58,166 bases of DNA from Candidatus Uhrbacteria bacterium (GCA_943358395.1 CALRGY010000002.1:1-58166); one strand, 5' to 3'. Positions 336 to 56,749 are shown, counted from the stretch's first letter. Made by a program: numbers and translations. Notes: generated by a model not told the origin, from the letters alone.

Positions 336-460
336 CAGAACGTCCTCAATTTGTCTATTTTGAACTTGCCTCATCGCAAATTTCCTCAACGTACCGTGAA
401 GTACGTATCGGAATATTTGCTCGAGTCGCGTCCAAACTAGCCTAAATTGAGAACGTCCTG
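336..460. repeat. Long-hairpin element copy 1 (working label LHE), in the 23S-5S spacer
   Basis: Imperfect terminal inverted repeats CAGAACGTCCTCAATTT / AAATTGAGAACGTCCTG. Core ACGTAC-CGTGAA-GTACGT shared with the other copies. Confidence 0.8.
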
Positions 461-511
461 AACATAACAATGCGTTCTTCACTATTTGCAGAAACTGATC
501 GAAAGGATCCT

Positions 512-626
512 CCGTCTTGGTGGCACTTCCGGCAGGGCAACACCCGTTCCCATCCCGAACACGGTCGTTAAGCCTGCACGGGCCGATGGTAGTCAAGGTT
601 GGCGAGAGTAGGTGGCCGCCAGGACA
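512..626 (+). rRNA. rrf: 5S rRNA
   Basis: Conserved CCCGTTCCCATCCCGAACACGG..GTTAAGC, GCCGATGGTAGT and GAGAGTAGGT.GCCGCCAGG. Helix I pairs GTCTTGGTGGC with GCCGCCAGGAC. Confidence 0.93.
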
Positions 627-654
627 GAGAACCCTTTCACAGTACGAAACAAAT

Positions 655-681
655 CGAGCCCCAGTGGCTCGTTTTTGTTTT
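655..681 (+). terminator. Intrinsic terminator after 5S rRNA
   Basis: CGAGCC-CCAGT-GGCTCG hairpin followed by TTTTTGTTTT. Confidence 0.75.
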
Positions 682-701
682 GACGAGTAAAATAAACGAG
701 T

Positions 702-1274
702 ATGAAAATTATTCTGGGTTCACAGTCGAAGTGGCGAGCGAAAGAGCTTGAAGAGGCTGGCATTGAATTTACCACAATGAGCGCAGATATTGATGAGAAG
801 GCAATTCGTTTCGATGATCCGGAAAAGTTGACTCTCGCACTTGCTCACGCAAAAGCCGATGCACTCCTGAAAGACATTTATGAGCCGGCATTACTGATAA
901 CAACGGATCAAGTTGCTGTTTGCGACGGGGAGATTCGAGAGAAGCCAGAAAATGTGAGAGAAGCGCGAGGTTTCTTGGAATCGTATACGAGATATCCCGC
1001 AGAGGTTGTAAACGGTTTGGTTGTGACGGATACGTCATCAGGGAAAAGATTTGAAGGAATCGATCGTGCGAAAGTTTTCTATAAACCTTCGTTGGCATTT
1101 GTTATCGATGAGCTTATTAAGAAGGGCGAAGTCATGACGTGTGCTGGATCATTTCAGGCAGAGGATCCGCTCATGCTCGCCCATGTCGACCATATTGAGG
1201 GCGGGCTCGATAGTTTTTCCGGTATGCCAATTGTGCTTGTAAAAAGGTTGCTTTCCGAAGCTCAATTGTTATGA
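702..1274 (+). CDS. maf: Maf-like nucleoside triphosphate pyrophosphatase
   Basis: 190 aa. ILGSQS..R start, DIDE motif and TTDQV..CDGEI.EKP match the Maf/YhdE family pattern. Confidence 0.8.
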   Translation: MKIILGSQSKWRAKELEEAGIEFTTMSADIDEKAIRFDDPEKLTLALAHAKADALLKDIYEPALLITTDQVAVCDGEIREKPENVREARGFLESYTRYPAEVVNGLVVTDTSSGKRFEGIDRAKVFYKPSLAFVIDELIKKGEVMTCAGSFQAEDPLMLAHVDHIEGGLDSFSGMPIVLVKRLLSEAQLL

Positions 1275-1936
1275 AAACCATCCTCATCACCGGCGTCAGT
1301 CGCGGAATCGGTCGTGCGCTTGCAGAAAGATTTCTCCAAAATGGCGATTTCGTCATTGGGACTTCAACTTCTGGCACTTCGCCGATCGAGCACGAGCGAT
1401 TACTGATGCTCAAACTTGATCTCGCAAGCCCTGAAAGTATCGCTGCATGCGCGCAATTCATCATCGATTCCGGTAAAACGATTGATGTTCTCATGAACAA
1501 TGCCGGCATTTGGTCTGGGGTCGACGAAAGTCCGAGTATCGATGTCGGAATGTTACGAAAAGTTCTTGAAGTGAATCTTTTTGGTACCGTGGACTTCACG
1601 GAGCGAATCATCCCGATAATGAAAAACGGTGGTCACATTGTGAATATTTCCTCAAGAATGGGGTCTATCGGTGGAATCGAGAGGGTTGGAATTAACTGGC
1701 CTGATTACAAAATTTCGAAAGCTGCATTAAACATGGCTACTCGTATTTTGAGTGTTCGATTGCAGGATCGAAATATCACCGTTTCCTCCGTTCATCCAGG
1801 CTGGGTCAAGACCGATATGGGTGGATCTGACGCGGATCTTGAGCCCGAAGAAGCAGCGGAAGACATTTTCACATTCGCGATATCGATGCCAGAAACCGGA
1901 CAGTTTTGGTTTAAAGGTGAGAAGTTTTCTTGGTGA
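1271..1936 (+). CDS. Short-chain dehydrogenase/reductase (SDR)
   Basis: TGVSRGIGRA Rossmann motif, NNAG, and Y..SK catalytic motif (YKISKAALN). ATGA overlap with maf stop. Confidence 0.85.
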   Translation: MKTILITGVSRGIGRALAERFLQNGDFVIGTSTSGTSPIEHERLLMLKLDLASPESIAACAQFIIDSGKTIDVLMNNAGIWSGVDESPSIDVGMLRKVLEVNLFGTVDFTERIIPIMKNGGHIVNISSRMGSIGGIERVGINWPDYKISKAALNMATRILSVRLQDRNITVSSVHPGWVKTDMGGSDADLEPEEAAEDIFTFAISMPETGQFWFKGEKFSW

Positions 1937-1955
1937 TCGGGTACAATTCTTTTAT

Positions 1956-2990
1956 ATGTTGCAGCATGACTTTCCAAGTTCCCCAGAAAAAATACGCGAA
2001 CAGATTATCGCAGAGGCTGTTTCGGAATTGAAGGGCTTTGGCTCTACGAAAGTTCGGCAGTTCCAGCAGGGTAGCGATCCTCGTCAGACGAGTCCTGAAA
2101 ATCTCATAAAGCCTTTTAAAAAAATAGCATTTCCGAGTGAAGGACCTCGTGAGCTGACTTTTTTTGGCGTTGTTCATAAAAATAAGGAATCAATCGCGGC
2201 TTTGCGGACAGATCTTCGAGAGAACGTTTTATTAAAACAGGATCCCGAAAAGATCGTTTGGATGATCGAGGGACGGCATACCGAAAAGCCATACGATCGC
2301 GAACAGGCATTGGAGGACATGGAGGGCGTAACTTCGATTGAACAAGCGATTGAGAAGTTTGGTGAATCTGGCGTTGCGTTGTGGTGTGTTGCTGATTATG
2401 CACGACGAAACCCACCAATTGAGGTTGAAATTTCATCACCAGAAGCGCCAGAAGCCGATATTGCACAGGCATTGAAATCCGAATACAGCCCTGCAGATAT
2501 TGCGGCCTATCTCATGCTTCGCCAATGGATCTCTAAAATTGGCGGGAAAAAGACAGGAGAATATTCAACCAGAGAATTCGCAGGATATGCGTTTTATGTT
2601 GCGCAGGTATCGGGTGTCGATTGGATCCATGACAAGAAGACGGAAGACGAGATTCGTGAGCTGAGGAAGAATGATGGGAAGTTCGATGAATATAGAGCAG
2701 TTGTTGGTCAGCAGTTCCTCGACGGGCTCAACACAAAACTTGGATTATCGATCACGTTGGAACAGCTTCGTGCCCGGAAAGCCGATGATACGTTAATGAG
2801 AGAGATGAATACTTCTTCCAGCGCCGAAAGCGAGCTTAATAATCGTTGGAATACTGAGCGAGATAGGTTTTTGGTGAAGGAAATTGGGAATGCAATAACT
2901 CGAGGCAAAAAACCATACGTTATTTTCGGAGCATCACACGCGATTCATTGTGAGCCGGCATTAGAAAAGCTTTCTGAGCTTGTACTATGA
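1956..2990 (+). CDS. Hypothetical protein
   Basis: ORF-track frame 1752..2990, trimmed to the first ATG after the SDR stop (MLQHDF...). No family recognised. FFGVVH near the N-terminus and VIFGASHA at the C-terminus faintly resemble TraB/GumN-type proteins (weak). Confidence 0.55.
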   Translation: MLQHDFPSSPEKIREQIIAEAVSELKGFGSTKVRQFQQGSDPRQTSPENLIKPFKKIAFPSEGPRELTFFGVVHKNKESIAALRTDLRENVLLKQDPEKIVWMIEGRHTEKPYDREQALEDMEGVTSIEQAIEKFGESGVALWCVADYARRNPPIEVEISSPEAPEADIAQALKSEYSPADIAAYLMLRQWISKIGGKKTGEYSTREFAGYAFYVAQVSGVDWIHDKKTEDEIRELRKNDGKFDEYRAVVGQQFLDGLNTKLGLSITLEQLRARKADDTLMREMNTSSSAESELNNRWNTERDRFLVKEIGNAITRGKKPYVIFGASHAIHCEPALEKLSELVL

Positions 2991-4078
2991 GATGGGGCTA
3001 CAATCAGGTTTATGTCATGTTGTACGTTCTCGTTTTTGGTATTTTTCTTCATCCCCACTTCGCTCACGCCATCCCTCCGCCGGACGTTATCTCGAGCGTT
3101 GGTTCGCAACTGTCGCAGTTTCTTGGTCTTGGTGCGGTGTTGTTTTCTCTTTCCGTCGGGATGATGGCGCGCGTGTTCCAGCAGATTGCATCGCGAACGG
3201 GAATGCGTTCTGCTGTTGTTTTTCGAATCACCATCCTCGTTATTGTTCTTGGATTTTCGAGTGCATACGTTTTCGCTTCCTATCAATCGGCGATGAGTCA
3301 ACGGGCATACAACCAGCAAATCGCCGATGACTTGAAGAGAGGGTTCGATGATCAGTTTCCCGTGGAAGATGGAGTTCCGGTCGATGACACAACGACCTCA
3401 GCGGATCCGATGATGCCCGAGGCGCTTATCGATCTTTCATTATTTGTTTCCAACGACGCATTTCGCGCGATCGAAGCATCAAATCCCTTTGTCCTTGATG
3501 CTCGGGAAGATGAGGAATACGCCTATGGTCGATACCCGGGAAGCGCGCACATTCGGTTTGCGGATCTTATGAATGGCGAATGGAACAAGGTTCCCGCTCA
3601 TCAACCGGTGTATGTCTTCTGCTGGTCTGGCATTCGTGGGGAAATGGTAACGACATTCTTAAGAACAAAGGGAATTCAGGCGCAATATCTTGAAAAAGGC
3701 GCCGAGGGTTGGGTAAAAGACGGCGGAACGTGGGAGGGAGAGATTTCGTTCGCAGTGAAATATCCCGAGGAACGATATTCGAAGGTGATCACCACAGCCG
3801 AGGCTCACGCCGCGGTCGATTCCGGTGTACTCCTCATCGACGCTCGCGATACGGAAACATTCTCCAAGAAACACATCGATGGCGCGATCAACATCTCCGC
3901 GATCTTTACCCCATCATCGGAGCTCGCCGATGAGGTCGCAGCCGTTCCGGTCGGTGCAACGGTCATCACGGTGTGTGATAGTTTTGTTAGTTGTTTTGAT
4001 GCAAAGATCGTTGCACTCAAGCTCGAAGCTGCTGGTCACACCTTCCTCGGCAGATATAACACACCTTGGGAGTACTAA
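2987..4078 (+). CDS. Membrane-anchored tandem rhodanese-domain sulfurtransferase-like protein
   Basis: N-terminal hydrophobic helices. Two rhodanese-like domains (LDAREDEEY...FCWSGIRG active-site loop; LIDARD...TVCDSFVS). Confidence 0.75.
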   Translation: MRWGYNQVYVMLYVLVFGIFLHPHFAHAIPPPDVISSVGSQLSQFLGLGAVLFSLSVGMMARVFQQIASRTGMRSAVVFRITILVIVLGFSSAYVFASYQSAMSQRAYNQQIADDLKRGFDDQFPVEDGVPVDDTTTSADPMMPEALIDLSLFVSNDAFRAIEASNPFVLDAREDEEYAYGRYPGSAHIRFADLMNGEWNKVPAHQPVYVFCWSGIRGEMVTTFLRTKGIQAQYLEKGAEGWVKDGGTWEGEISFAVKYPEERYSKVITTAEAHAAVDSGVLLIDARDTETFSKKHIDGAINISAIFTPSSELADEVAAVPVGATVITVCDSFVSCFDAKIVALKLEAAGHTFLGRYNTPWEY

Positions 4079-4079: not shown

Positions 4080-5240
4080 ATGCCGAATCAATCATCGATT
4101 TCAGGATTGCCGACGTCGGGGAAGTTCTTTTTCGAGAAAACAGAAGTCTGTGACGTTGCGCCGTATCCGTCGGCGGAGACGTTTGCTTTACTTCAGGAGC
4201 TGTATGCGAAAGATGGACCAATCGATCGCGCATATCGATCTCAAGGAATTCGATACACCGACACGCGGTTTCTTCGCATCATCGAGGGCGAACTTTTCGT
4301 CGATCGTGAGCGAGAGTTACAAAGTCTTTTCCCGTCACACTCATACTTTGTCGGCACCGATTACACGCCGAAGCCCTCAAGAATCAAGGGATTCCTCACA
4401 TCTTTACGAAATACATCGCGGCTCCAAAAGATTCATGGCTCGGTCGATGAGTATCGCGCGAGACTCCGAGTGATGCTCGATCGAGAGCTGAAGACCACAA
4501 CGATCGACGAAGCGAAGAGGGAATTTTTTGATGATTACGAAACGATTTTCACTGTTAATCTCATCGCGGGAAATGCGATTACGCAATTGCAACGATCGTT
4601 GCCGAAAGATATTTCGATCGCAGAGGCGTTATCGTATTTCCCTGAGGGGATCGAGCCATTATGGAAGGCTCCGACCGGATTGATTGGAAGTACCCTCGAG
4701 TTCACCGATGAGAGTGCATTCATCTCGAATGCGGTCGATCACATATCGACCAGTATTCCTGATGGCATTCCGCTGAAAATATTACAAAACACGCAAAACT
4801 TCCTTCGGCTCCGCGAATACGGTCGCTGGATCGCCATTCGACACATCAATCATCTCCGAGACTTGTATCCTCACATCAATCCTCCGAATGTTCCGATCGT
4901 ACCGTTGCCGACGATTATTACCGACCAGAAGCTTCCGATCGCTCCGATAAAATCCATCGGCGTCTCCGCTGGAATCGCCACGGGAATACTCGTCGATTCG
5001 CCCACCAAAGGCGGGATTCTCGTCGTCTCCACGCTCTCGCCGGCACTCGTCCAACACTTTTCAATGATTGTCGGAATCATCGCCTCCCACGGAAGCATAA
5101 TGAGCCATTGTGCCATTGTTGCTCGTGAAATGGGTTTGCCGGTTGTTACAAAGTACCCAATACAGACGTTGCCCATCGGAAAGCGTGTGACGATCGATGG
5201 GGGAACGGGCAGGGTGAGTATTGATGAGCCGTGCGCATAA
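4080..5240 (+). CDS. PEP-utilising-enzyme mobile (phosphohistidine swivel) domain protein lacking an ATP-grasp module
   Basis: C-terminal GIATG...VVSTLSPA...IIASHGSIMSHCAIVAREMGLPVV matches the PEP/pyruvate-binding mobile domain. Start taken at ATG 4080 (MPNQSS), just after the rhodanese stop. Confidence 0.7.
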   Translation: MPNQSSISGLPTSGKFFFEKTEVCDVAPYPSAETFALLQELYAKDGPIDRAYRSQGIRYTDTRFLRIIEGELFVDRERELQSLFPSHSYFVGTDYTPKPSRIKGFLTSLRNTSRLQKIHGSVDEYRARLRVMLDRELKTTTIDEAKREFFDDYETIFTVNLIAGNAITQLQRSLPKDISIAEALSYFPEGIEPLWKAPTGLIGSTLEFTDESAFISNAVDHISTSIPDGIPLKILQNTQNFLRLREYGRWIAIRHINHLRDLYPHINPPNVPIVPLPTIITDQKLPIAPIKSIGVSAGIATGILVDSPTKGGILVVSTLSPALVQHFSMIVGIIASHGSIMSHCAIVAREMGLPVVTKYPIQTLPIGKRVTIDGGTGRVSIDEPCA

Positions 5241-7983: not shown

Positions 7984-8112
7984 CTAGGCACGAGCCTTCT
8001 TTGCAGCGACCTTCTTCATAGCTTTCTTTGGTGCTGCCTTCTTTACCGCTTTCTTCACAACTTTCTTTACTGCCTTCTTCACAACCTTCTTTGCCGCTGC
8101 CTTTTTCTTCAT
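7984..8112 (-). CDS. Small Lys/Ala-rich basic protein (histone H1-like / nucleoid-associated candidate), 42 aa
   Basis: Hand translation of the minus strand gives MKKKAAAKKVVKKAVKKVVKKAVKKAAPKKAMKKVAAKKARA*. It is below the 60-aa cut-off of the ORF track. The plus-strand ORF 7963..8154 is its antisense shadow. Confidence 0.55.
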   Translation of the reverse strand: MKKKAAAKKVVKKAVKKVVKKAVKKAAPKKAMKKVAAKKARA

Positions 8113-10524: not shown

Positions 10525-10581
10525 GTGTTTGTGTGGGATCGGTTTTGACGAGTTCATCTTGAGTGAAAACGCGACGAATAC

Positions 10582-10703
10582 AAAACATCGTAATTTTGTT
10601 CAGGACTAGGAGGAGCATGAGCAATTGCCGAAGACGTACTTCTTGGTACGACGAGGCAATGCGCAATGTTCCGACAACGTCCTGGACGAAATTACGATGT
10701 TTT
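10582..10703. repeat. LHE copy 2 (divergent), abutting the tRNA-Ala 3' end
   Basis: Outer stem AAACATCGTAATTT / AAATTACGATGTTT, inner CAGGAC...GTCCTG, apical ACGTAC-TTCTTG-GTACG. Confidence 0.65.
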
Positions 10704-10704
10704 G

Positions 10705-10780
10705 TGGTGGACCAACAGGGACTCGAACCCTGGACCCTCTGCTTGCAAAGCAGATGCTCTACCAACTGAGCTATTGGCCC
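10705..10780 (-). tRNA. tRNA-Ala (anticodon UGC)
   Basis: Hand-folded cloverleaf: acceptor GGGCCAA/TTGGTCC with G3:U70, anticodon loop TTTGCAA, TTCGAGT T-loop, encoded CCA. Confidence 0.9.
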
Positions 10781-12651: not shown

Positions 12652-13641
12652 TTATGCTTTGCGGATGCGGTAGGTATGCAGCTCGCGTTCTTTGGGCCAC
12701 TTCGTGAGTATACCAGTCTTCGCTCCTACATGTTGCACCACGCTTTCTGCGTTCATGGTGCCAAGGCGCAGTGCGTCTTCGATAGTCATGCCGCTCGCGA
12801 TTGCTGCGGTGAATGCAGAACCGAATGCGTCGCCGGCACCGGTACGGGAAATGGATGCCACGCCAGATGTTCTGCAGTGCCATGTTAATTTGTCCTTATG
12901 TGCATGCGCACCATTTTGTCCGTCGGTTACCACGATAATCGATCCTGGAAGTGCTAAAAGCTCGCATTGTATTTTGGGATCGTTGGACGATTTTCCTGTG
13001 AGCATTTGTGCTTCTTGAAGATTCACGATGAGGAGGGAAACGAGCTTGCGAATAGGATCAAGGCCTCTGCCGCTCTTTAATTCTTGTGCCCCTGGGTTCC
13101 ACGCAAGAAAGATACCTTTCTTTTCGCATACTTTCGCAATGGAAAGTGCGAGCGCTACATTGCCTCCCAATGATGTGAGATACACGATGTCCGATGAAAT
13201 TTTGGAAAGCTTTACATCTTTTTCGCTGAAATTTGCGCTTGCGCCACGAAAAACCAGAGCGGTTCGTTCGCCACCTTCTGCGGTAAGCAGCGTGCTGTAC
13301 GACGTGGATTCTTTTTTTGCGACGGTGATGAGGAATGTGTCAACACCGCGTGTTGCGCAATCGGTAAGAATATCGCGCCCAGAGGCATCGTCACCAATGC
13401 GGGTCATAATGCGAGTAGGGAAGGTAAGAGCAGCGAATGTTGCTGCGGCATTTGTGGCGCCACCACCAGTGGTTACGGTGAGTGCGTCGATATCGATCTT
13501 GGACCCGAGAGTCACGCATTCCGCAAGAACGCTGGGGTTGCCTGGCATTGGCATGATTTTGAACAGTTTGGAGAAAAGAAAAACATCGCGAGAAGCAGAG
13601 CCGATGGTAAGAACAGAGGGGAGAGACATAGGGGTATGCAT
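12652..13641 (-). CDS. PfkB-family carbohydrate kinase
   Basis: GGGATNAA and C-terminal GAGDAFGSAF motifs of the ribokinase/PfkB family. Confidence 0.8.
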   Translation of the reverse strand: MHTPMSLPSVLTIGSASRDVFLFSKLFKIMPMPGNPSVLAECVTLGSKIDIDALTVTTGGGATNAAATFAALTFPTRIMTRIGDDASGRDILTDCATRGVDTFLITVAKKESTSYSTLLTAEGGERTALVFRGASANFSEKDVKLSKISSDIVYLTSLGGNVALALSIAKVCEKKGIFLAWNPGAQELKSGRGLDPIRKLVSLLIVNLQEAQMLTGKSSNDPKIQCELLALPGSIIVVTDGQNGAHAHKDKLTWHCRTSGVASISRTGAGDAFGSAFTAAIASGMTIEDALRLGTMNAESVVQHVGAKTGILTKWPKERELHTYRIRKA

Positions 13642-18146: not shown

Positions 18147-19027
18147 AGGCTTTCGTTAGATATTTTTCCTCCCAGGGTGCGAAGGTCTTTGAGTGCAGAT
18201 GTCAGCTCTGTGCGATTCTTTGGGGGCTTGCCGTGCCAGCTTGGCTCACATTCCATGAAGCTCACGCCTTTGCCCGGAATGGTATGTGCGATGATGACGG
18301 TTGGCGCTTCCCATGTGCTTTCCCCCCGGTCGCAGGCATTAATGATGTCGCGAATGTTGTGGCCGTCAATTTCGAGTACGTTCCAGCCGAATGCGGCGAA
18401 TTTATCGTGGACGGGTTCCAGCGGCATAATGTCCTCCGTGTAGCCGTCGATTTGAATGTTGTTGCGATCAATAATCCACGTGAGGTTGTTGAGTTGATAC
18501 TTTGCAGCGAAGAGTGCAGCTTCCCAAGTAATCCCGCATTCCAGTTCACCGTCGCTCATCACGCAGTACGTGTGCCACGGCGCGCCATCCATCTTTGCGG
18601 CATATGCGGCGCCAACGGCTTGGGATGATCCGTCGCCCAGCGGGCCCGAGGTATTCTCGAGGCTTGGCAGATAACGAATTTCCGGGTGGCCTTGTAATCG
18701 TGATCCGAATTTTCGCAGAGTACTCAGCTCATCGACGGGGAAGTATCCTGCACGCGCCATCGCTGCATATCGCACCGGAACAATATGGCCATTGCTGAGA
18801 AAGAGTCGATCACGGTCTGCCCAGTGTGGTTGCTTAGGCCGATGCTGAAGAATATGAAAGTAGAGCGCCGTGAAAATATCCGCCATGCCCAGTGGCCCTG
18901 CACTATGCCCGCTACCAGCAGTCGTCAACATGGTTAAAATATCCTGACGAATCGTATTCGCAAGAAGCTCAAGTGTGCGGACTTCAGAATCAGTGATGGT
19001 AGAAACGCTGTGGCGGCGGGGAGGCAT
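18143..19027 (-). CDS. tkt: Transketolase, N-terminal (TPP-binding) subunit
   Basis: AGSGHSAGPLGMADI, LSNGH and GPLGDGSSQAVG motifs. Start trimmed to MPPRRHS because the longer track ORF reads through repeat sequence. Confidence 0.88.
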   Translation of the reverse strand: MPPRRHSVSTITDSEVRTLELLANTIRQDILTMLTTAGSGHSAGPLGMADIFTALYFHILQHRPKQPHWADRDRLFLSNGHIVPVRYAAMARAGYFPVDELSTLRKFGSRLQGHPEIRYLPSLENTSGPLGDGSSQAVGAAYAAKMDGAPWHTYCVMSDGELECGITWEAALFAAKYQLNNLTWIIDRNNIQIDGYTEDIMPLEPVHDKFAAFGWNVLEIDGHNIRDIINACDRGESTWEAPTVIIAHTIPGKGVSFMECEPSWHGKPPKNRTELTSALKDLRTLGGKISNESL

Positions 19028-19090
19028 GGAAGAAGTATACCAGGGACTTGAAAGAGAAAATGACAGACGGAAACGGAGTACGACGTATTC

Positions 19091-19133
19091 CAGACCCTGA
19101 GGCTTCGCCGAAGGGCCTCCGTCAGGATTCTGT
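19091..19133 (+). repeat. 43-nt hairpin repeat unit (GIY-YIG-associated), copy 1
   Basis: CAGACCCTGAGGCTTCGCCGAAGGGCCTCCGTCAGGATTCTG. Its reverse complement recurs at 19683-19725 and partly at 19174-19202. Confidence 0.8.
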
Positions 19134-19173
19134 GCCTCGGAGATCGGATACAAACAGAGCGTAAATTGCATTC

Positions 19174-19202
19174 GAGGCCCTTCGGCGAAGCCTCAGGGTC
19201 TG
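19174..19202 (-). repeat. Partial inverted copy of the 43-nt unit
   Basis: GAGGCCCTTCGGCGAAGCCTCAGGGTCTG is the exact reverse complement of 19091-19119. Confidence 0.8.
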
Positions 19203-19229
19203 TTTTCGATTCGTGAGCGATTACGAAAC

Positions 19230-19272
19230 CAGATCCTGAGTACCAACGAAGGTTCTCGAATGTAGCCTACCC
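19230..19272 (+). repeat. Direct repeat flanking the GIY-YIG gene (left)
   Basis: CAGATCCTGAGTACCAACGAAGGTTCTCGAATGTAGCCTAC versus 19625-19667. Confidence 0.75.
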
Positions 19273-19302
19273 GATTACGTTTGCGATGTATCATTGGTCA
19301 GT

Positions 19303-19599
19303 ATGAATGTCGGAATTTACATCATGACGAACGCGTCTCATTCCACGCTGTACGTTGGTATGAGTACGGATCTTCCTGAGCGCATTGCGTCGCATAAAGA
19401 AGGTCTCGTCGACGGATTTGCGAAGAAATATCGATGCACGATTCTTGTCTATTACGAAGGATGTGACAGTATTGATCATGCGTATATTCGTGAGAAGCAG
19501 ATCAAAGGCTGGACACGAAACAAGAAAGTCGCATTGATTCAGATGCGTAATCCAACGTGGAATGACGTGTATAAGGAATTGATTGCAGAGTCGGTGTAG
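19303..19599 (+). CDS. GIY-YIG nuclease family protein (small stand-alone, COG2827-like)
   Basis: IYIMTN....LYVGMS.DL..R...HK and REKQIKGW.R.KK..LI...NP.W.D pattern. Start at ATG 19303 (the track start 19294 is TTG). Confidence 0.8.
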   Translation: MNVGIYIMTNASHSTLYVGMSTDLPERIASHKEGLVDGFAKKYRCTILVYYEGCDSIDHAYIREKQIKGWTRNKKVALIQMRNPTWNDVYKELIAESV

Positions 19600-19624
19600 T
19601 GGCGATTTATTAAATCTGGGGTGC

Positions 19625-19667
19625 TCAGATCCTGAGTATTAATGAAGGATCTCGAACGCAGCCTACG
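19625..19667 (+). repeat. Direct repeat flanking the GIY-YIG gene (right)
   Basis: CAGATCCTGAGTATTAATGAAGGATCTCGAACGCAGCCTAC. Confidence 0.75.
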
Positions 19668-19682
19668 CTTCTGCTTCATCAA

Positions 19683-19725
19683 CAGAATCCTGGCGGAGGC
19701 CCTTCGGCAGAGCCTCAGGGTCTGT
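19683..19725 (-). repeat. 43-nt hairpin repeat unit, inverted copy
   Basis: CAGAATCCTGGCGGAGGCCCTTCGGCAGAGCCTCAGGGTCTG. Confidence 0.8.
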
Positions 19726-19784
19726 GAAATCGTTCGAAACATCATTGCGAATGATGGGATTGAGAGCTTGTAGAGGTATGAGTT

Positions 19785-19814
19785 CAAAAACAAAAACGAG
19801 GCTTTGGAGCCTCG
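19785..19814 (-). terminator. Intrinsic terminator (minus strand)
   Basis: CGAGGCT-CCAA-AGCCTCG followed by TTTTTGTTTTT when read on the minus strand. Confidence 0.7.
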
Positions 19815-19855
19815 CTGATGGGTAGAGATGATGCATCTTTATGTTTCTCTTTGAC

Positions 19856-20197
19856 TCATGCTATAGACTCAAGCGATTTAAGCATAGCGGCATGTTCGGC
19901 AATAAGATCTGCTTTGAGCTTGGAGTCTGTTGTATACGTACTAAGTGTGCTCGCGATATATTCATGGCTCATCCCCGGCCCAATTTGTGCGAGCTGTTTT
20001 CTGGGTTCTGTAACATTCACGCCACGTTGCTCTGCTGCATCGATCATTATTGTCATGCGCGCGATCGTTGCTATCTTTTTTTCGGTATTCCTTGCAATCA
20101 TGAGTCGTCTCTGTTCCTGCTCTTCTGGACCAAGGTTCCGCAACTGTTGCAGTACATTCATTTCAGTATTGGGTTCCATAAGATGTATGTTGAGCAA
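19856..20197 (-). CDS. Hypothetical protein
   Basis: 113 aa. Chosen over two overlapping plus-strand ORFs because of composition, the 11-nt gap to the upstream minus-strand gene and the downstream minus-strand terminator. Confidence 0.5.
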   Translation of the reverse strand: MLNIHLMEPNTEMNVLQQLRNLGPEEQEQRRLMIARNTEKKIATIARMTIMIDAAEQRGVNVTEPRKQLAQIGPGMSHEYIASTLSTYTTDSKLKADLIAEHAAMLKSLESIA

Positions 20198-20208
20198 GAT
20201 GAATAATT

Positions 20209-21012
20209 TTATTCGCTCACGTAAATAGCTCCAGTATTTCCACTGTCATAACTATCGAAGAAGGTGTAGGTTCCTGCTTCGGTGAAGCGGTGGGTGAAGG
20301 TAACGCCAGCGGTCATGGTGCCGGTGCCCCATGTGAGATCGTCGGCGGTGGCAGTGTGTTTTTCCGTATCTGCATTTACAAATTTTACCGTTTCCCCGGC
20401 GGCGATGGTGACATCAATAGGGCTATAGCCGTCGCTGGTGATGGTGATTGTTTCTGGATTACTCAGATCTTTATCTGTATTGATGCTTGTTGCTCCTGCG
20501 GCTTCTACGGTTTTTGAGTAACTTCCTGAGGTTTCAATAGCGCTTCCTACAGTGTAATTACTGAAGAATCCATCTGGAATATCGTCGATCATTGTGTTCC
20601 AGGTGCTGCCGTAGAGTGCAATAGCAATGGCTTCACTGGTGACGTGGCGGAGTGTTCCCCCGGCGCTGATAGCGTATGTTTTTGGATCGGTGTTGATCTT
20701 AATCATCTTTACGCCTGGCTTATACGTCACGTTTCCGCCCATTTGAATTTTTGCCAAATCCGCATCGCTGAGGGTTTTGACGGTATCAAAGTTGCTGTAC
20801 CAGGTGAAATAGGTTTTATCGTTTGGAAAAACGTACCGGAAGCCGTCTGCACCCATGTAGTACACCGCAGAGAACGATGTTCCGCGAATTAAATCGCCAG
20901 AGCTGACGGTGGATGCCGCGTGAACAGATGATGCGTTCCAAAGCTGTGCGCCGCCAAAGAGTGCAACGACGGCAAGGAAAGAGCCAAAGAAAGAAAGCGT
21001 ATGTTTGATCAT
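20209..21012 (-). CDS. Secreted protein with C-terminal cupredoxin-like domain
   Basis: Signal peptide. The C-terminus (ITITSDGYSP..V.I.AGETVKFVN.D...HT...D......G..FTH.F.EAGTY.F) resembles plastocyanin/EfeO-type cupredoxin folds. Confidence 0.6.
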   Translation of the reverse strand: MIKHTLSFFGSFLAVVALFGGAQLWNASSVHAASTVSSGDLIRGTSFSAVYYMGADGFRYVFPNDKTYFTWYSNFDTVKTLSDADLAKIQMGGNVTYKPGVKMIKINTDPKTYAISAGGTLRHVTSEAIAIALYGSTWNTMIDDIPDGFFSNYTVGSAIETSGSYSKTVEAAGATSINTDKDLSNPETITITSDGYSPIDVTIAAGETVKFVNADTEKHTATADDLTWGTGTMTAGVTFTHRFTEAGTYTFFDSYDSGNTGAIYVSE

Positions 21013-22895: not shown

Positions 22896-22956
22896 AATCT
22901 CTGTTTCCTGGAGCTTTTCCGTATTTTTGAGTACTATCGACATATCATTCATAAGG

Positions 22957-23079
22957 AGGACTTTCTCATTTTCGACCAATTTCGGTGCGCAAGGAAGAAT
23001 ATTCGCGAGGTGTACTTCTCGGTACATTGAGCGAATGTTCGACGCAGCAAGCCGAAAATGGGCAAAATGAGGAAGTTCT
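22957..23079. repeat. LHE copy 3, directly upstream of ileS
   Basis: AGGACTTTCTCATTTT...AAAATGAGGAAGTTCT ends. Body CGGTGCGCAAGGAAG...GTGTAC-TTCTCG-GTACAT. Confidence 0.85.
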
Positions 23080-23105
23080 CACAATTTATCGAGCTCGGCG
23101 TTCCG

Positions 23106-26057: not shown

Positions 26058-26060
26058 AAT

Positions 26061-26133
26061 GGCTAATATTAGCCAAATACTATTGACAAAACCGTGATTT
26101 TGTGGCATAGTAACGCCATGGACAGTCGTATCT
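26061..26133 (+). promoter_or_regulatory. Conserved regulatory cassette copy 1: 14-nt palindrome + sigma70-like promoter + conserved transcript start
   Basis: GGCTAATATTAGCC (26061-26074), TTGACA (26083-26088), 17-nt spacer, TGgCATAGT (-10 at 26106-26111), then ACGCCATGGACAGTCGTATCT. Near-identical block at 28729-28801. Confidence 0.6.
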
Positions 26134-26156
26134 GCCGAAGAAAAGAAGGTTCATGA
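26118..26156 (+). other. Candidate leaderless mini-ORF MDSRICRRKEGS*
   Basis: The ATG lies 7 nt after the predicted -10. The first five codons (MDSRI) are identical in the second cassette. Purely predicted. Confidence 0.25.
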
Positions 26157-26161
26157 AAATC

Positions 26162-26189
26162 AAAACTCCCGCCCTTCGGCGGGAGTTTT
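26162..26189 (+). terminator. Intrinsic terminator/attenuator hairpin upstream of speH
   Basis: AAAACTCCCGCC-CTTC-GGCGGGAGTTTT, identical at 28960-28987. It lies 20 nt before the speH ATG. Confidence 0.7.
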
Positions 26190-26208
26190 GTTGTAGAATA
26201 TATGTCTT

Positions 26209-28728: not shown

Positions 28729-28803
28729 GGCTAATATTAGCCGAATACTATTGACAAAAGTCCATTTTTATGGCATAGTAACGCCATGGACAGTCGTATC
28801 TAG
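28729..28803 (+). promoter_or_regulatory. Conserved regulatory cassette copy 2 (palindrome, -35/-10, mini-ORF MDSRI*)
   Basis: GGCTAATATTAGCC (28729-28742), TTGACA (28751-28756), 17-nt spacer, CATAGT (28774-28779), ATG 28786, TAG 28801-28803. Confidence 0.6.
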
Positions 28804-28804
28804 T

Positions 28805-28941
28805 CGGGCTTTCGCCTTTCGCCTTTGGTCTCTTTTCGAATCAGCTCATCGGAAACGTCTTCAACGTACCAAGAAGTACGTCTCAGACGATTTCCTCGAT
28901 CTTCATCGAAAATAGCCTCAAATGCGGAACCCCTATCACGC
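28805..28941. repeat. LHE copy 5 (degenerate ends), inserted in the leader of cassette copy 2
   Basis: GGTCTCTTTTCGAATCAGCTCATCGGAAACGTCTTCA-ACGTAC-CAAGAA-GTACGT-CTCAGACGATTTCCTCGATCTTCATCGAAAATAGCC. Confidence 0.75.
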
Positions 28942-28959
28942 ATACACATCGAGATCACC

Positions 28960-28987
28960 AAAACTCCCGCCCTTCGGCGGGAGTTTT
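28960..28987 (+). terminator. Intrinsic terminator/attenuator hairpin, second identical copy
   Basis: AAAACTCCCGCC-CTTC-GGCGGGAGTTTT, 15 nt before ATG 29002. Confidence 0.7.
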
Positions 28988-29001
28988 GGTACACTAGAGC
29001 C

Positions 29002-32156: not shown

Positions 32157-32280
32157 AGGGGTTTTCGAATTTTAGGCTATTTTCGGTGCGCAAGGAGCAA
32201 AGTTCGTGAGACGTACTTAACGGTACGTTGAACGAATTTGTGACGAAGTAAGCCGAAAAGAGACAAAATGGGAAAACCCT
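32157..32280. repeat. LHE copy 6 between convergent genes
   Basis: AGGGGTTTTCGAATTTT...AAAATGGGAAAACCCT ends. The body is nearly identical to copies at 39384 and 55094. Confidence 0.85.
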
Positions 32281-32287
32281 AAATGAG

Positions 32288-37326: not shown

Positions 37327-37505
37327 TAGGACTTCCTCATTTTGTCTATTTTCGACTCACCCCGCTGTTCGCGAACGGCGGGGTCAGATCATCGGAAAAT
37401 CGTTCACCCCGCTTCTCGCGAGAGGCGGGGTCAACGTACCATGAAGTACGTCTCACGAATTTTCCTCGATCTTCATCGAAACTAGCCTAAAATGAGAAAG
37501 TCCTA
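37327..37505. repeat. LHE copy 7 (variant II, two nested GC hairpins), fills the whole intergenic gap
   Basis: TAGGACTTCCTCATTTT...AAAATGAGAAAGTCCTA. Nested CCCCGCTGTTCGCGAACGGCGGGG (37360-37383) and CCCCGCTTCTCGCGAGAGGCGGGG (37407-37430). Confidence 0.88.
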
Positions 37506-39383: not shown

Positions 39384-39544
39384 TAGGACTTTCTCATTTT
39401 AGGCTATTTTCGGTGCGCAAGGAGCAAAGTTCGTGAGATGTACTTAACGGTACGTTGAACGAATTTGCGACGCAGCAAGGTATGAAGTAAGCGCTTCGCT
39501 TTACTTCATACCAAGCCGAAAAGAGACAAAATGAGAAAGTCCTA
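39384..39544. repeat. LHE copy 8 (variant I with a nested 15-bp hairpin)
   Basis: Perfect 16-nt ends AGGACTTTCTCATTTT / AAAATGAGAAAGTCCT. Nested GGTATGAAGTAAGCG-CTT-CGCTTTACTTCATACC. Confidence 0.88.
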
Positions 39545-43215: not shown

Positions 43216-43238
43216 ATGGGTACAGTGTACATGAATTG

Positions 43239-43297
43239 TAGGACTTCTCATTTGAGGCGAGTTTCGATGAAGATCATAGACCAAAGGAGAAGTCCTA
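43239..43297. repeat. LHE copy 9 (59-nt internally deleted derivative)
   Basis: TAGGACTTCTCATTTGAGGCGAGTTTCGATGAAGATC|ATAGACCAAAGGAGAAGTCCTA. Confidence 0.7.
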
Positions 43298-43301
43298 AAT
43301 T

Positions 43302-49786: not shown

Positions 49787-49901
49787 TAGGATTTTCTCAC
49801 TTCCCGCATTGTATCATCGAAAATTGTTCAACGTACCAGGTAGTACGTCTCACGAAATTTGCTCGATGCGCACCGAAACTGGTCGAAAATGAGAACGTCC
49901 T
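49787..49901. repeat. LHE copy 10 (hybrid body) in a divergent promoter region
   Basis: TAGGATTTTCTCAC...AAAATGAGAACGTCCT. Core ACGTACC-AGGTA-GTACGT. Confidence 0.8.
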
Positions 49902-49940
49902 CAAGATCACGACAAGGGGCGTGATATAATTCTTCACAAT

Positions 49941-54094: not shown

Positions 54095-54202
54095 AGCCGG
54101 AGTATTGCACAGAATGCCTATCCGTGAAAGCGGTATACTTGAGAAAACACTGAAGAAAGAGTAAAATAATGTTTGATTCTTTTTATACGTAAAGCGTAGA
54201 AG

Positions 54203-54316
54203 ACCAACGAAGTTCGTCATATACAAGGAAGATTTCAAGAACCGACGAGCCGTACTCATCGTACGGTGAGGAGGCTCGAAGGAATCTGACGCGGTAGATG
54301 ACGAACTTGGGTTGGT
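54203..54316. repeat. Long hairpin upstream of tRNA-Ile (LHE-like core, different ends)
   Basis: ACCAACGAAGTTCGTCAT pairs with ATGACGAACTTGGGTTGGT. Apical CCGTAC-TCATC-GTACGG sits inside CGAGC...GCTCG. Confidence 0.6.
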
Positions 54317-54321
54317 TTTCT

Positions 54322-54397
54322 GGACCCATAGCTCAACGGTTAGAGCACCGAGCTTATACCTCGGCGGTTCCTGGTTCGAGTCCAGGTGGGTCTACCA
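54322..54397 (+). tRNA. tRNA-Ile (anticodon UAU)
   Basis: Hand-folded 76-nt cloverleaf: acceptor GGACCCA/TGGGTCT (G1-U72), D stem GCTC/GAGC, anticodon stem CCGAG/CTCGG with loop CTTATAC, T arm CCTGG-TTCGAGT-CCAGG, encoded CCA. Confidence 0.8.
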
Positions 54398-54401
54398 AAC
54401 T

Positions 54402-54560
54402 ATGTATTTTGTCCTTCCTCTTCTTCTCAGCCTTGCTGTCATATTCGGCATTCTTGGCCGACAGCAGCACAATCACGAATTTATCGGGCTGTCGTATATT
54501 TTCTTCCTTGCGACATTTGGTGCTGGCACCGTGCTCTTTTTTGCGCTGAGCGCGCTCTAA
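54402..54560 (+). CDS. Possible small hydrophobic membrane peptide (52 aa)
   Basis: MYFVLPLLLSLAVIFGILGR...FFLATFGAGTVLFFALSAL. It starts 5 nt after the tRNA and ends 4 nt before the next ORF. Confidence 0.3.
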   Translation: MYFVLPLLLSLAVIFGILGRQQHNHEFIGLSYIFFLATFGAGTVLFFALSAL

Positions 54561-54563
54561 TAT

Positions 54564-54962
54564 ATGCCAGACGGTTTCCAATCGGTACTATGGGTGCTGT
54601 GTGGAGGGTGGTTTATTATCTACTGGATTTTGGGCGGTGTGGTGTTTGCGCTTGTTGCCGCAGCACGTTCAACGCACATGCGGAAAGCGCGGTTTAGCTG
54701 CTTGTTTACCCTTGGTAGTGCTGCAGCGGCATATGGTGCGGCGGTTGTTGGGCTACTTTTGCTGCGCCCCCGGGGGCCACGGTGCCCAGAAGAGTTTTTG
54801 CCGCCAAAGGCATTTATGGTAGCAAAAGACGTCGGTTTGTACGACGCATTGCTCTGCGATACCCGAGCAATCATGACCGCAGGAGCGCTCTTCTTCATGC
54901 TCCTTCTTGCCTTGGGTGTTATGGCAATGCTGGTATCGGGAATTGAAAGGTCGAAAAAATAG
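54564..54962 (+). CDS. Hypothetical integral membrane protein
   Basis: 132 aa with four predicted TM helices. Confidence 0.5.
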   Translation: MPDGFQSVLWVLCGGWFIIYWILGGVVFALVAAARSTHMRKARFSCLFTLGSAAAAYGAAVVGLLLLRPRGPRCPEEFLPPKAFMVAKDVGLYDALLCDTRAIMTAGALFFMLLLALGVMAMLVSGIERSKK

Positions 54963-54980
54963 TCTTGTACTTTCTCAAAC

Positions 54981-55011
54981 AAAACACCGTCCCTATCTGG
55001 GACGGTGTTTT
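54981..55011. terminator. Bidirectional intrinsic terminator
   Basis: AAAACACCGTCCC-TATCT-GGGACGGTGTTTT. Confidence 0.8.
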
Positions 55012-55012
55012 G

Positions 55013-55089
55013 TGGTGCGCGCATGTGGATTCGAACCACAGACCTTCACAATGTCAATGTGACGCTCTAACCAACTGAGCTATGCGCGC
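55013..55089 (-). tRNA. tRNA-Val (anticodon GAC)
   Basis: Hand-folded: acceptor GCGCGCA/TGCGCGC, anticodon stem TCACA/TGTGA with loop TTGACAT, GGTTCGAATCC, encoded CCA. Confidence 0.9.
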
Positions 55090-55093
55090 CTTT

Positions 55094-55217
55094 GAGAACT
55101 TCCTCATTTGGTCTCTTTTCGGCTTGCTGCGTCGCAAATTCGTTCAACGTACCGTGAAGTACGTCTCACGAATTTTGCTCCTTGCGCACCGAAAATAGCC
55201 ACAAATGAGAAAGTTCT
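55094..55217. repeat. LHE copy 11 (variant I), abutting the tRNA-Val 5' end
   Basis: GAGAACTTCCTCATTT...AAATGAGAAAGTTCT. The body is the reverse complement of the copies at 32157 and 39384. Confidence 0.85.
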
Positions 55218-55251
55218 ATCCGTAAAATGATACGGTTCCAAAGAGACCATG

Positions 55252-56676
55252 TCAATTTTGCGTTGCCAAATATCGAGCGAAATCGAGTGCGGCGGCACGG
55301 GAGGAAAGATGGCCTTCGAGTTGAGCACTGCGGATACTATCGAGGTATTCGCGAATGCGGGGGCCGGGGGAGAAATTAAGCGCAAGTAAGTCGCGACCAC
55401 GCACCAGTTCTTCTGGGGCTGGTTCACTGAGCCACTTTGCGCGCTCATTCCGAAGGAAAATAAGGTTTTCTCTTGCAGTGCCATGGTTGTGTTTTGCACT
55501 GATGGTGGCGTCAAGGAGTGCAAGAAGTTCAGCGCCACGTTGCCCGCGCGTGAGGCGTTCCCGTTCTGCGGGAGAAAGATCTGTGGCGTGCCCGTGGGTA
55601 AGAGTAACGGTTTTATTCAGCATCCATCCGGCATGGGTGTGATCAAAGTGGAAACGATGATCGTCTACAGCGTGAAGGTGAAGGCGGGTAACAATGTTGC
55701 GCAATGCACCCATGGCACCGTCGTCAAGAAGTGCCAAAATGCCAGCAATGTTGCGCGTGGCGCTTTTGTGTGCAGTGCCGTAGGTACGAGTGCTTTCGTA
55801 GTGGGTAAGTGCATCCAGTAGCCGATGCGTTTTTTGCCAACCGGTTTCTCCGTCGTCATGAATGGTTGCGCCATGATGCAGAAGCTCTGGAGCAAGGGAT
55901 TCCAACGCACCACTGTCTTTCAGAAGGGTAAGGGCATACTTGGGATTGTGTGCCAGCGCCATAACAACATCGTGCCCTAAACGTACCCGGGGGATAACGT
56001 AGTGCGTATTGCCTTCCTCGTCATGATCGATGCGATGCACTGACGAGTGATGACGGGAAAGGGCATCCCACAGTGCGGGGTCAAGAGTGAAATTGTGTTG
56101 GCTTGCTAAACGAATCGCTCGTGCAACAAGCGCTGGTTCCTGAGAAAGGTGGAGCGCTGGGTGATGAAGTGTACGGATTGTTTTTGTGTGCAAAAGATCG
56201 TTGAGCCCACCGTGCGGGTCGTGAAGAATGCCGTTGTTGAAAGAGTATGCAATGGCATTGATGGAAAAATCGCGGCTTGCTAAATCGTCGTGTAGCGATC
56301 GGTCATGTCCAGGGATACGGTTGACGGTGCCGGTGCTGTCGAGTGTACGAATGTGCGGCGTAGTAATGGAAATGGTTTCTTGTGTGCTGTGCGGTGTGAC
56401 GTGCCAGTGCCCAGACGTATGCTGCGTCACAGTGCCGTGCGCCTGTAAGAATCGATGCAGTACCGGTGGCGCAACGTCACGTACCATCACATGTGCCCGA
56501 TGCGGAACCACCCCAAGAACAGCATCGCGCACTGTTCCGCCCACCAAGTACGGATCTGCAGCAGGAATATCTCGCACCATCTTAAACAGCAGCCCCAGCG
56601 GAGCCGTATCTGCAACGTATGCGCCAACCCTGCGGTGCGCTGGCATGGAACGAGTGGAGTACCAGACGGGGTTCAT
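55252..56676 (-). CDS. tRNA nucleotidyltransferase / poly(A) polymerase family protein (CCA-adding-enzyme-like)
   Basis: LVGGTVRDAVLG head-domain motif and RDFSINA. Confidence 0.75.
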   Translation of the reverse strand: MNPVWYSTRSMPAHRRVGAYVADTAPLGLLFKMVRDIPAADPYLVGGTVRDAVLGVVPHRAHVMVRDVAPPVLHRFLQAHGTVTQHTSGHWHVTPHSTQETISITTPHIRTLDSTGTVNRIPGHDRSLHDDLASRDFSINAIAYSFNNGILHDPHGGLNDLLHTKTIRTLHHPALHLSQEPALVARAIRLASQHNFTLDPALWDALSRHHSSVHRIDHDEEGNTHYVIPRVRLGHDVVMALAHNPKYALTLLKDSGALESLAPELLHHGATIHDDGETGWQKTHRLLDALTHYESTRTYGTAHKSATRNIAGILALLDDGAMGALRNIVTRLHLHAVDDHRFHFDHTHAGWMLNKTVTLTHGHATDLSPAERERLTRGQRGAELLALLDATISAKHNHGTARENLIFLRNERAKWLSEPAPEELVRGRDLLALNFSPGPRIREYLDSIRSAQLEGHLSSRAAALDFARYLATQN

Positions 56677-56681
56677 AATGG

Positions 56682-56749
56682 GAGAATTGTTTCATTTTGA
56701 CTATTTTCAGCTTGCAGCATCGAAACTAGCCTAAAATGAAAAAGTTCTC
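56682..56749. repeat. LHE copy 12 (68-nt internally deleted derivative)
   Basis: GAGAATTGTTTCATTTTGACTATTTTCAGCTTGCAGCATCGAAACTAGCCTAAAATGAAAAAGTTCTC. Confidence 0.7.

Follow-up and report, generated by a model that had tools for sequence, protein, structure and literature searches.

A dispersed family of non-coding hairpins, each an imperfect palindrome of ~125 nt, occupies a 58,166-nt stretch of DNA from Candidatus Uhrbacteria bacterium (GCA_943358395.1 CALRGY010000002.1:1-58166). This whole stretch is hereafter called the window, and 13 copies make up ~1.6 kb, or 2.8%, of it. The family is defined by its structure rather than by its ends, and its copies are gained and lost between related genomes. 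The reading that we favour, and to which we give roughly an even chance, is that of a REPIN-like non-autonomous element that is copied through a folded single strand, is co-transcribed with its neighbors and has in part been domesticated as a processing or stability hairpin.

The copies were oriented before they were compared, and the two strands were named A and B, where B is the strand that folds well. Thirty-four copies of the type found in the window, taken from it and from several genomes of the Candidate Phyla Radiation (CPR), align without gaps over 125 columns. RNAalifold finds 49 pairs in this alignment, 32 of them with compensatory double changes. In total, 96.4% of the cells are paired, and 294 cells carry a double change compared with 85.7 ± 8.9 in shuffles (0 of 500 shuffles reach 294). 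Sliding the 3′ partners by 1 to 3 columns lowers pairing to 32 to 47%. The paired substitutions described in an earlier note on this DNA are real (column pair 43/85 has GC 14, CG 12, and AU 6; column pair 31/98 has AU 18 and GC 15) and highly significant relative to shuffles, in controls that are blind to kinship among copies. The arms vary freely between copies provided that pairing holds. Variation is greatest in the outer ~12 bp, and conservation is strongest at the apex. On the B strand, the apical module reads GAG-nCGUAC-loop-GUACGn-UGAG and is invariant or nearly so. Its 8-bp stem (GACGUACU-loop-GGUACGUU) is closed by a U·G pair at the top and has a G·U pair at its base, and a tandem sheared G·A loop lies directly below it. 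Two more G·A-type loops are present lower on the B strand, together with two further conserved U·G pairs, giving four conserved wobble pairs. Folding thus bears out the almost full self-complementarity of the body and the conserved apical hairpin with a free loop and tandem G·A flanks, as first noticed, and adds that the G·A loops are confined to a single strand. The window contains 9 instances of the apical motif CGTACY-N4-RGTACG, compared with 0.07 expected by chance, and hairpin length clusters at 123 to 127 nt across lineages.

Since G·U cells outnumber A·C cells on the B strand (144 versus 11, and 33 versus 9 when the four conserved wobble columns are excluded), the constraint acts on one folded strand and not on the duplex. 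In every full-length copy, B folds 10 to 20 kcal/mol better than A, and the B model scores 124 bits on the B strand of the best copy compared with 49 bits on its A strand. Selection on the local sense RNA was considered as the source of this bias and rejected: the bias is alike in copies transcribed as A (15 versus 3) and in copies transcribed as B (15 versus 6). It looks like a feature enforced during copying, or inherited from B-sense masters.

A covariance model (R1) was trained on 34 copies, of which related genomes supplied 30 and the window 4. It recovers each of the 12 copies that the earlier note had located, with scores of 25 to 124 bits and one strand each, and adds a divergent but full-length 13th copy at 54197-54322 (+) (27.7 bits, E = 5.6e-5). 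This copy forms a 126-nt hairpin of -61.5 kcal/mol (z = -8.3) with the apex GAGCCGTACTCATCGTACGGTGAG. The copies are listed below with their covariance model scores where these apply to the single copy; promoter and terminator calls, here and later, are consensus matches and denote predicted sites.

336-460 (-): full-length copy of 125 nt in the 23S-5S spacer, 12 nt past the 23S rRNA 3′ end; transcribed as the A strand; 122.6 bits.
10581-10704 (+): full-length copy of another subfamily, with ends AAAACATCGTAATTTTG and a body of the CTAGGAGG type; 1 nt off the 3′ end of tRNA-Ala (10705-10780, -); fold of -68.9 kcal/mol on B versus -52.3 on A; 66.9 bits.
22956-23080 (+): full-length copy, B-sense, in the 5′ leader of isoleucyl-tRNA synthetase (IleRS), 26 nt upstream of the start codon used by the IleRS of a 95%-identical relative; 113.2 bits.
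28302-28453 (+): copy with one nested mini-hairpin, also found by the covariance model.
28397-28420: nested 24-nt palindrome CCCCGC..GCGGGG within the preceding copy, at a tandem G·A loop and flanked by a TGA duplication.
28811-28935 (-): full-length copy, earlier placed at 28805-28941, inserted directly past a promoter-like TTGACA-17-CATAGT; 98 bits.
32157-32281 (+): full-length copy between convergent genes, 2 nt off the FemAB stop and 7 nt off the ferric-reductase stop; 109 bits.
37327-37505 (-): copy with two nested mini-hairpins; of the co-directional genes around it, one stops at 37323 and the other starts at 37512, and the RNA made here carries strand A.
37360-37383 and 37407-37430: the two nested CCCCGC..GCGGGG palindromes of the preceding copy, each at a G·A loop and set between duplicated TCA triplets.
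39384-39544 (+): copy interrupted at a G·A loop by a hairpin of 36 nt (39480-39515); the element lies 1 nt off the stop of a minus-strand gene; model positions 31-96 match 39414-39479.
43238-43298 (+): central-deletion derivative of 59 to 61 nt with both ends retained; 25.2 bits.
49787-49902 (-): copy with a partly degraded arm between divergent genes; 51.6 bits.
54197-54322 (+): the 13th copy, in B-sense; its hairpin extends to the first base of tRNA-Ile(UAU), and a promoter-like TTGAGA-17-TAAAAT lies upstream (54139-54167).
55094-55218 (-): best-scoring copy, B-sense, 4 nt before tRNA-Val (55013-55089, -); 124.3 bits.
56682-56749 (-): central-deletion derivative of 68 nt, 6 nt upstream of the start of a gene resembling that of the CCA-adding enzyme; 43.6 bits.

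The two body variants were also considered as merely the two orientations of one sequence, an idea that was rejected when all copies had been oriented; they are real subfamilies. The copy at 10581-10704 belongs to a subfamily other than the commonest, which corrects its earlier assignment. The two short copies (43239 and 56682) had been taken for internal deletions and prove to be symmetric central deletions which, like a 36-nt remnant in a relative (below), are as expected for palindromes. Copies 28302 and 37327 are 94 to 97% identical, including the nested insert, and their flanks are unrelated. The tiny GC-rich palindromes (CCCCGCnnnnCGCGnnnnGCGGGG) are confined to the insides of long hairpins, lie exactly at tandem G·A loops and are bordered by a duplicated triplet (TCA/TGA). 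The 36-nt insert of copy 39384 sits at the same loop, has CAAG flanks and differs in sequence, and comparable nested inserts are present in loci L069 and L083 from other genomes. The tRNA-Ile (54322-54397) directly 3′ of the 13th copy has a UAU anticodon, which is uncommon in bacteria.

The window is a contig from a metagenome assembly (ENA ERZ27280328, k141_1601309). Its closest named relatives are Candidatus Uhrbacteria metagenome-assembled genomes (MAGs); its IleRS is 84% identical to the counterpart in CALRCK01, and positions 1-3369 share 81% DNA identity with CALRAI01. Genes in the window are tightly packed and include the 3′ end of 23S rRNA, one 5S rRNA and four tRNAs. No transposase was seen in the window. 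Gene calls in loci fetched from other genomes are based on simple open reading frame (ORF) heuristics and ARAGORN.

Comparison with relatives reveals many further copies, empty sites and independent insertions. The IleRS leader holds the copy 22956-23080 in the window and, at the same spot in the 95% relative (L095/L096), a 36-nt remnant with both ends retained. In the 84 to 85% relatives (L097/L098) this leader is empty and its sequence is uninterrupted (..CAT directly followed by CACAATTTATCGAGC). In front of the next conserved gene, the window (the 28811 copy) and L097 have each acquired an insertion independently, at points ~60 nt from each other, and the site is empty in L098 and in the paralogous promoter copy of the window at 26060-26133. 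Short-read assemblies break at copies. The family is small in unit size, non-coding, multi-copy (13 copies in 58 kb) and polymorphic for insertion, as MITE-type elements (miniature inverted-repeat transposable elements) are. The repeats do form a true family, dispersed and hairpin-shaped, some of whose members derive from others by internal deletion. That the family behaves as a non-autonomous mobile element (dispersed, non-coding, gained and lost, and decaying by deletion) was rightly recognized from the beginning.

Several further observations concern individual loci. The 28811 copy lies within a small duplicated module that relatives also conserve in front of a gene (window 26060-26200 and 28728-29010; L097 ~4760-4870; L098 ~13015-13160). 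In the module, TTGACA-17-CATAGT (with TG) resembles a promoter, and CTCCCGCCCTTCGGCGGGAG followed by a T tract resembles a terminator; ATGGACAGTCGTATCT is the third component. The whole may be a leader/attenuator or a small RNA. A 634-bp cassette at 19091-19724 carries a 98-aa GIY-YIG ORF (~19303-19599) between 43-nt inverted repeats (19091-19133 and 19682-19724), with direct repeats of ~40 nt flanking it; the left inverted repeat belongs to a 112-nt GC-rich hairpin. In relative L084, the intergenic site of this cassette is occupied by a 125-nt hairpin element instead. In locus L091, hairpin copies at 1903-2027 and 5094-5218 each follow a sequence resembling a 23S 3′ end (..CATTCACTGATTGT..), which points to the ends of two rRNA operons in a space of 8 kb, or else to the duplication of a fragment.

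The ends of the element were first described as imperfect terminal inverted repeats (TIRs). The TAGGACTTYCTCATTTT ends hold for the commonest subfamily and fail as a family-wide TIR, because other members differ: copies of one genome have unrelated ends (AAAAACTG.., GATGACG.., AGAGGGC.., TAGGACTT..) that are yet complementary to the last base. The TA/TTA flanks, once taken as a hint of target-site duplication (TSD), are part of the palindrome, since the terminal dinucleotides are inverted complements (GA..TC, AA..TT) and not direct repeats. Among 59 full-length copies, direct repeats of at least 2 nt flank 1, compared with 4.3 in shuffled pairings. The flank profiles of the copies contain no conserved target motif. 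No pair of family ends 0.5 to 4 kb apart encloses an ORF. Neither the window nor the ~700 kb of fetched flanking loci yielded an autonomous insertion sequence (IS) sharing the ends, or a transposase that recurs. When 1,308 flanking ORFs were clustered all against all, housekeeping synteny alone emerged, and no recurrent protein family that could be a partner. A tblastn search for Y1 transposases gave 0 matches in the fetched DNA, a weak test made with two approximate query sequences. The MITE- or Correia-type mechanism to which the behavior of the copies had been likened is hence not supported: ends are variable, TSD is absent and no IS with the same ends turned up in the window or the fetched loci.

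The copies lie a few nucleotides off stop or start codons, in agreement with the earlier observation, and they do so with polarity. Among 59 full-length CPR-type copies, the B 3′ end is at most 15 nt from a gene boundary in 27 of 55 cases, compared with 9 of 53 for the B 5′ end. Next to tRNAs, it is always the B 3′ end that faces the tRNA (12 of 12 copies); 8 sit 1 to 5 nt upstream of tRNA +1 in B-sense and 4 just past the tRNA 3′ end in A-sense. In two Uhrbacteria loci (L056 798-1081 and L063 1861-2163), a tRNA, an A-sense hairpin, a spacer of 36 to 55 nt, a B-sense hairpin and a second tRNA follow one another, and each hairpin meets its tRNA with the same physical end. In low-copy, divergent members of the family, the stop codon lies -8 to +2 nt from the first paired base, and the mRNA strand is mostly A (~25 versus 6, by hand count). 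These members adjoin nusB/rnc in four CPR phyla (L010, L011, L045, L048). Other genes upstream of them encode RNase E/G, two DEAD-box helicases, EF-G (three loci), RpoB/RpoC, GroEL (two loci), RecA, L5, ClpB, AtpE, SOD and RNR. At several loci a canonical terminator comes after the hairpin, and the element is therefore inside the 3′ UTR. The hairpin has no signature of an intrinsic terminator itself, as neither end carries a T tract (the B 3′ flank is 24% T). Upstream of copy 55094, a promoter-like TTGACA-17-TATCAT (55255-55227; 11 of 12 matches, the best site in 40-58 kb) stops 8 nt before the element, so the primary transcript there should consist of the hairpin, 4 nt and tRNA-Val, judging from the predicted promoter. 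A promoter belonging to the element was rejected as a general feature: -10-like hexamers 4 to 10 nt upstream of the B 5′ end number 6, compared with a background of 6.3.

To follow the family beyond close relatives, a collection of species-representative genomes was scanned with an 18-base apical pattern in which the apex sequence is fixed. At least 88 genome stretches were listed, compared with ~17 expected by chance (an estimate from the collection size). About half of the matches listed are near-identical whole elements in Uhrbacteria and other CPR MAGs; the remainder have the same apex and entirely different arms. Among the matches listed, CPR hosts of such different-arm elements are Saccharibacteria, Paceibacterota, Kaiserbacteria, Peribacteria and Parcubacteria. 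Those outside the CPR, on long contigs, are Rhodanobacter, Lysobacteraceae, Geobacteraceae, Syntrophales, Nitrospirota, Acidobacteriota, Methylomirabilota and Peptococcaceae, and the non-CPR matches listed span at least 6 other phyla, including Gammaproteobacteria and Bacillota. The GC content of the arms follows that of the host, up to 70%, and the copies are therefore native to those genomes. Forty-nine cross-phylum copies aligned to R1 are 87% paired and have 779 double-change cells compared with 244 in shuffles, in an alignment that is fitted to the model and hence leans towards its structure. A plain MAFFT alignment of the cross-phylum members gives only a partial consensus fold; the covariance model alignment is needed. 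Copies recovered by the model and not by the exact pattern retain CGTAC/GTACG and the flanking GA, with compensatory changes in the pair below the core.

The element had not been recognized as a named family, and Rfam 15 agrees: there is no match in the window at the gathering score, none at E ≤ 1 in five loci from five lineages and none at E ≤ 10 on 54100-55300. With respect to a phage origin, IMG/VR yields one match in 2.9 million contigs. As to a plasmid origin, BLAST of the Lysobacteraceae and Syntrophales variants against PLSDB gave no match. In the literature on CPR, MITE, REPIN, RNase III or tRNA-adjacent repeats, a description of the family was not found, and the literal motif retrieved primers only. 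A side result concerns taxonomy. Several MAGs titled "uncultured Gammaproteobacteria" (L084, L044, L055 and L066 from CAYPRR01; L004, L022, L041 and others from CAZVBP01; L009 and L061 from CAYHKX01) are syntenic with the window (L084 versus 18161-20873, 68% DNA identity) or bear the CPR-type element. Because of the synteny with a CPR window, these labels are probably wrong.

The closest analogue appears to be the REPIN/RAYT system, to judge from the hairpin, the compensatory changes, the absence of TSD and single-strand recognition. REPINs are REP doublets that form hairpins and are mobilized by RAYT, also known as TnpA-REP (PMC3116915, PMC8266576). Like the present family, they are non-coding intergenic repeats of ~100 nt that form hairpins, lie mostly at gene 3′ ends, lack TSD, and conserve length and hairpin capacity through compensatory changes. 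Strand-specific recognition of a folded single strand is a further likeness, which for the present family is a proposal. The differences are equally clear. In REPINs the ends, which are REP 16-mers tagged with GTAG, are conserved and the middle varies, whereas here the apex is conserved and the ends vary; a GTAG or CGTC tag is absent from the consensus and the alignments, the apex being flanked by GA/GA. Moreover, no RAYT-like gene is present among the clustered flanking ORFs (the weak Y1 search with approximate queries was likewise blank), and one apical motif spans phyla. Several phyla carry small palindromes of the GTAG and CGTC REP superfamilies, which lie mostly 3′ of coding regions and often form inverted dimers able to fold into larger structures; CGTC REPs have no known transposase (PMC3733652). 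Their units of 20 to 40 nt have an unpaired 5′ tag, stems of 8 to 9 bp starting with AT and a CCA tail (PMC3733652). The GA / GACGUACU..GGUACGUU / GA apex and the 125-nt unit fit none of the 28 families as these are described (PMC3733652). Among organelle genomes, the sponge mitochondrial RHEs (repetitive hairpin-forming elements) are reported as hairpin repeats of selfish appearance that invade intergenic regions of compact genomes and have no recognizable transposase (PMC2800124). The likeness is one of behavior only, with other hosts and no sequence relation. Unlike the IS200/IS605-derived PATE, the present family has no fixed target motif in its flanks and forms a single symmetric hairpin, not distinct left and right subterminal hairpins. 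Integron attC sites have conserved R''/R' core sites at the base and a variable apex, the reverse of the arrangement found here, with its variable base and conserved apex. Classical bacterial MITEs, for which reviews exist (PMC2229807, PMC10969869), include the Correia/NEMIS, RUP and ERIC elements. These have conserved TIRs and are confined to a genus or family, with a TA duplication for Correia and RUP, and processing by RNase III has been proposed for Correia. They resemble the present family in length (100-150 nt), long-hairpin potential, high copy number, co-transcription with neighbors and the existence of deletion variants, and differ from it in that it lacks conserved TIRs or TSD and shows systematic covariation and an apex shared across phyla.

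The mobilization of the family, as we infer it, would proceed as follows. A trans-acting factor, not encoded beside the copies, would recognize the apical module on the folded single-stranded B form, which could be single-stranded DNA or RNA. The factor would copy the whole hairpin into new sites at gene boundaries with a fixed polarity, and each round of copying would select an intact B-strand hairpin. This proposal would account for the compensatory changes and, because copying selects the B hairpin, for the persistence of the G·U/G·A signature on that strand also where the transcript is A. Once inserted, the element would join the transcript between a stop codon and a terminator, between genes of an operon, in the 23S-5S spacer, or in a tRNA leader or trailer. 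Some copies appear to have persisted for long, probably as double-stranded RNA processing or stability sites, for which RNase III would be the obvious candidate enzyme.

Several points weigh against this REPIN-like model. No mobilizing enzyme was identified among the flanking genes, and we infer the central step. The covariation controls take the copies as unrelated, so that kinship among them is not removed, and the conservation of the apex is partly by construction, as the scan fixed the apex sequence. Orthologs shared across genera (23S-5S spacer and tRNA flanks) have 31 compensatory, 17 wobble and 13 breaking changes, a pattern equally compatible with selection in situ, on behalf of the host, and with gene conversion or repeated targeting. 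The ortholog of the copy 336-460, at 1903-2027 in the Uhrbacteria locus L091, has a proximal flank that is identical in 20 of 20 positions and differs by 7 compensatory double changes. If the intermediate were RNA, the predominance of A-sense transcription among low-copy members would mean that most copies are inactive. Finally, the window has 7 copies on B+ and 6 on B-, a near-even split that gives no sign of a replication-strand bias of the IS200/IS605 type.

The main rival is a host-functional RNA module, a possible explanation that we hold to be on the improbable side. In this scenario, the hairpins are primarily cis-acting RNA modules. As double-stranded sites of processing or stability, they would divide operons, help to mature the precursors of rRNA and tRNA, and feed back on genes of RNA metabolism; the apex binds a host RNA-binding protein, and occasional duplicates are kept by selection. 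The association of low-copy members with nusB/rnc in four CPR phyla backs this idea, as do those located after RNase E/G, DEAD-box helicases, EF-G, RpoB/RpoC, GroEL, RecA, L5 and ClpB, and the copies in the window that flank the CCA-adding-enzyme gene, tRNAs and the 23S-5S spacer. The base of the hairpin lies at the stop codon or 1 to 5 nt from mature tRNA ends, the terminator beyond it at several loci places it in the mRNA, and orthologous copies retain pairing through compensatory changes. However, close relatives are empty or have the 36-nt remnant at the same sites, so that individual copies are dispensable. Both orientations are transcribed, and the non-Watson-Crick signature is on B whichever strand becomes RNA. 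The family is also patchy across bacteria, absent from Rfam and PLSDB (BLAST with two variants) and nearly so from IMG/VR, and its deletion derivatives and nested inserts resemble decay.

A bolder version of mobility, which we consider unlikely, is an as yet undescribed class of structured mobile hairpins that crosses phyla. Its active form would be a B-strand RNA or single-stranded DNA copy made from strong stable-RNA promoters. The order of promoter, hairpin, 4 nt and tRNA-Val in the window would offer such a source, from which RNase P would release the hairpin. A conserved cellular or otherwise widely shared enzyme would then read the GA-flanked CGUAC apex and copy the hairpin to gene boundaries. 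If true, the family would in effect be a bacterial SINE-like element, defined by structure and free of sequence in its body. Still less probable is a signal at the DNA level: a dimeric protein would bind duplex or cruciform DNA at CGTAC-N-GTACG, for example in the nucleoid or as a site of replication, recombination or uptake, and RNA would be irrelevant. The apex is indeed an inverted repeat of a 5-bp core, like many operators, and the polar placement holds in physical DNA terms, the same end facing genes whether upstream or downstream; but a symmetric duplex site would not hold asymmetric transitions that read as G·U/G·A on one strand only, and ~55 covarying arm pairs would be superfluous for duplex binding. 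A classical MITE, that is, an internally deleted IS with a DDE transposase (e.g., IS630/Tc1, with TA duplication) moved by cut-and-paste via TIRs from a parent IS elsewhere, is very improbable: many copies open with TAG and close with CTA, the commonest subfamily shares 16-nt ends and the copies are small, non-coding and intergenic, but copies that share a genome differ in their ends, which covary as inverted complements up to the final base, termini other than TA (GA..TC, AA..TT) are inverted rather than direct, the TSD test is negative, conservation across phyla is at the apex and not at the ends, and there are 0 end pairs 0.5 to 4 kb apart with an enclosed ORF.

The window contains other repeats as well. 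A second family, CTCCCCC-(TTTAT/TTCAA)-GGGGGAG-TnGGAGGGGG, has copies of ~35 to 60 nt each at 21541, 23897, 25493, 31264, 46927 and 46979. The IleRS ORF contains two of these, which encode ..PL(F/Y)KGESEGV..; the copy at 25493 is a 12-residue in-frame insertion that is absent from the 95%-identical IleRS of the relative. By analogy, these inserts resemble the RPE-type in-frame inserts of Rickettsia. A repeat with a 12-nt period (CTTCTT.. units) at 7995-8104, in or beside a minus-strand ORF, probably encodes a Lys/Ala-rich low-complexity tail.

Collectively, these data describe a family that is neither an ordinary transposon remnant nor a catalogued RNA family, and that represents a further variant of dispersed hairpins. 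CPR (Patescibacteria) genomes are reduced to ~1 Mb, yet one hairpin family fills ~3% of a 58-kb stretch, and loci from Kaiserbacteria, Saccharibacteria and Parcubacteria have a similar local density of hairpins. The fixed length, conserved apex and free but paired arms have the look of a functional RNA class, yet the copies come and go. If the element is selfish, it would be mobilized without conserved ends or target duplication, by a process that works in at least 7 phyla. If it is domesticated, it would be a widespread uncatalogued processing or stability signal at rRNA, tRNA, nusB/rnc, RNase E and EF-G loci. In practical terms, a covariance model of the family would improve the annotation of MAGs and explain contig breaks in short-read CPR assemblies.

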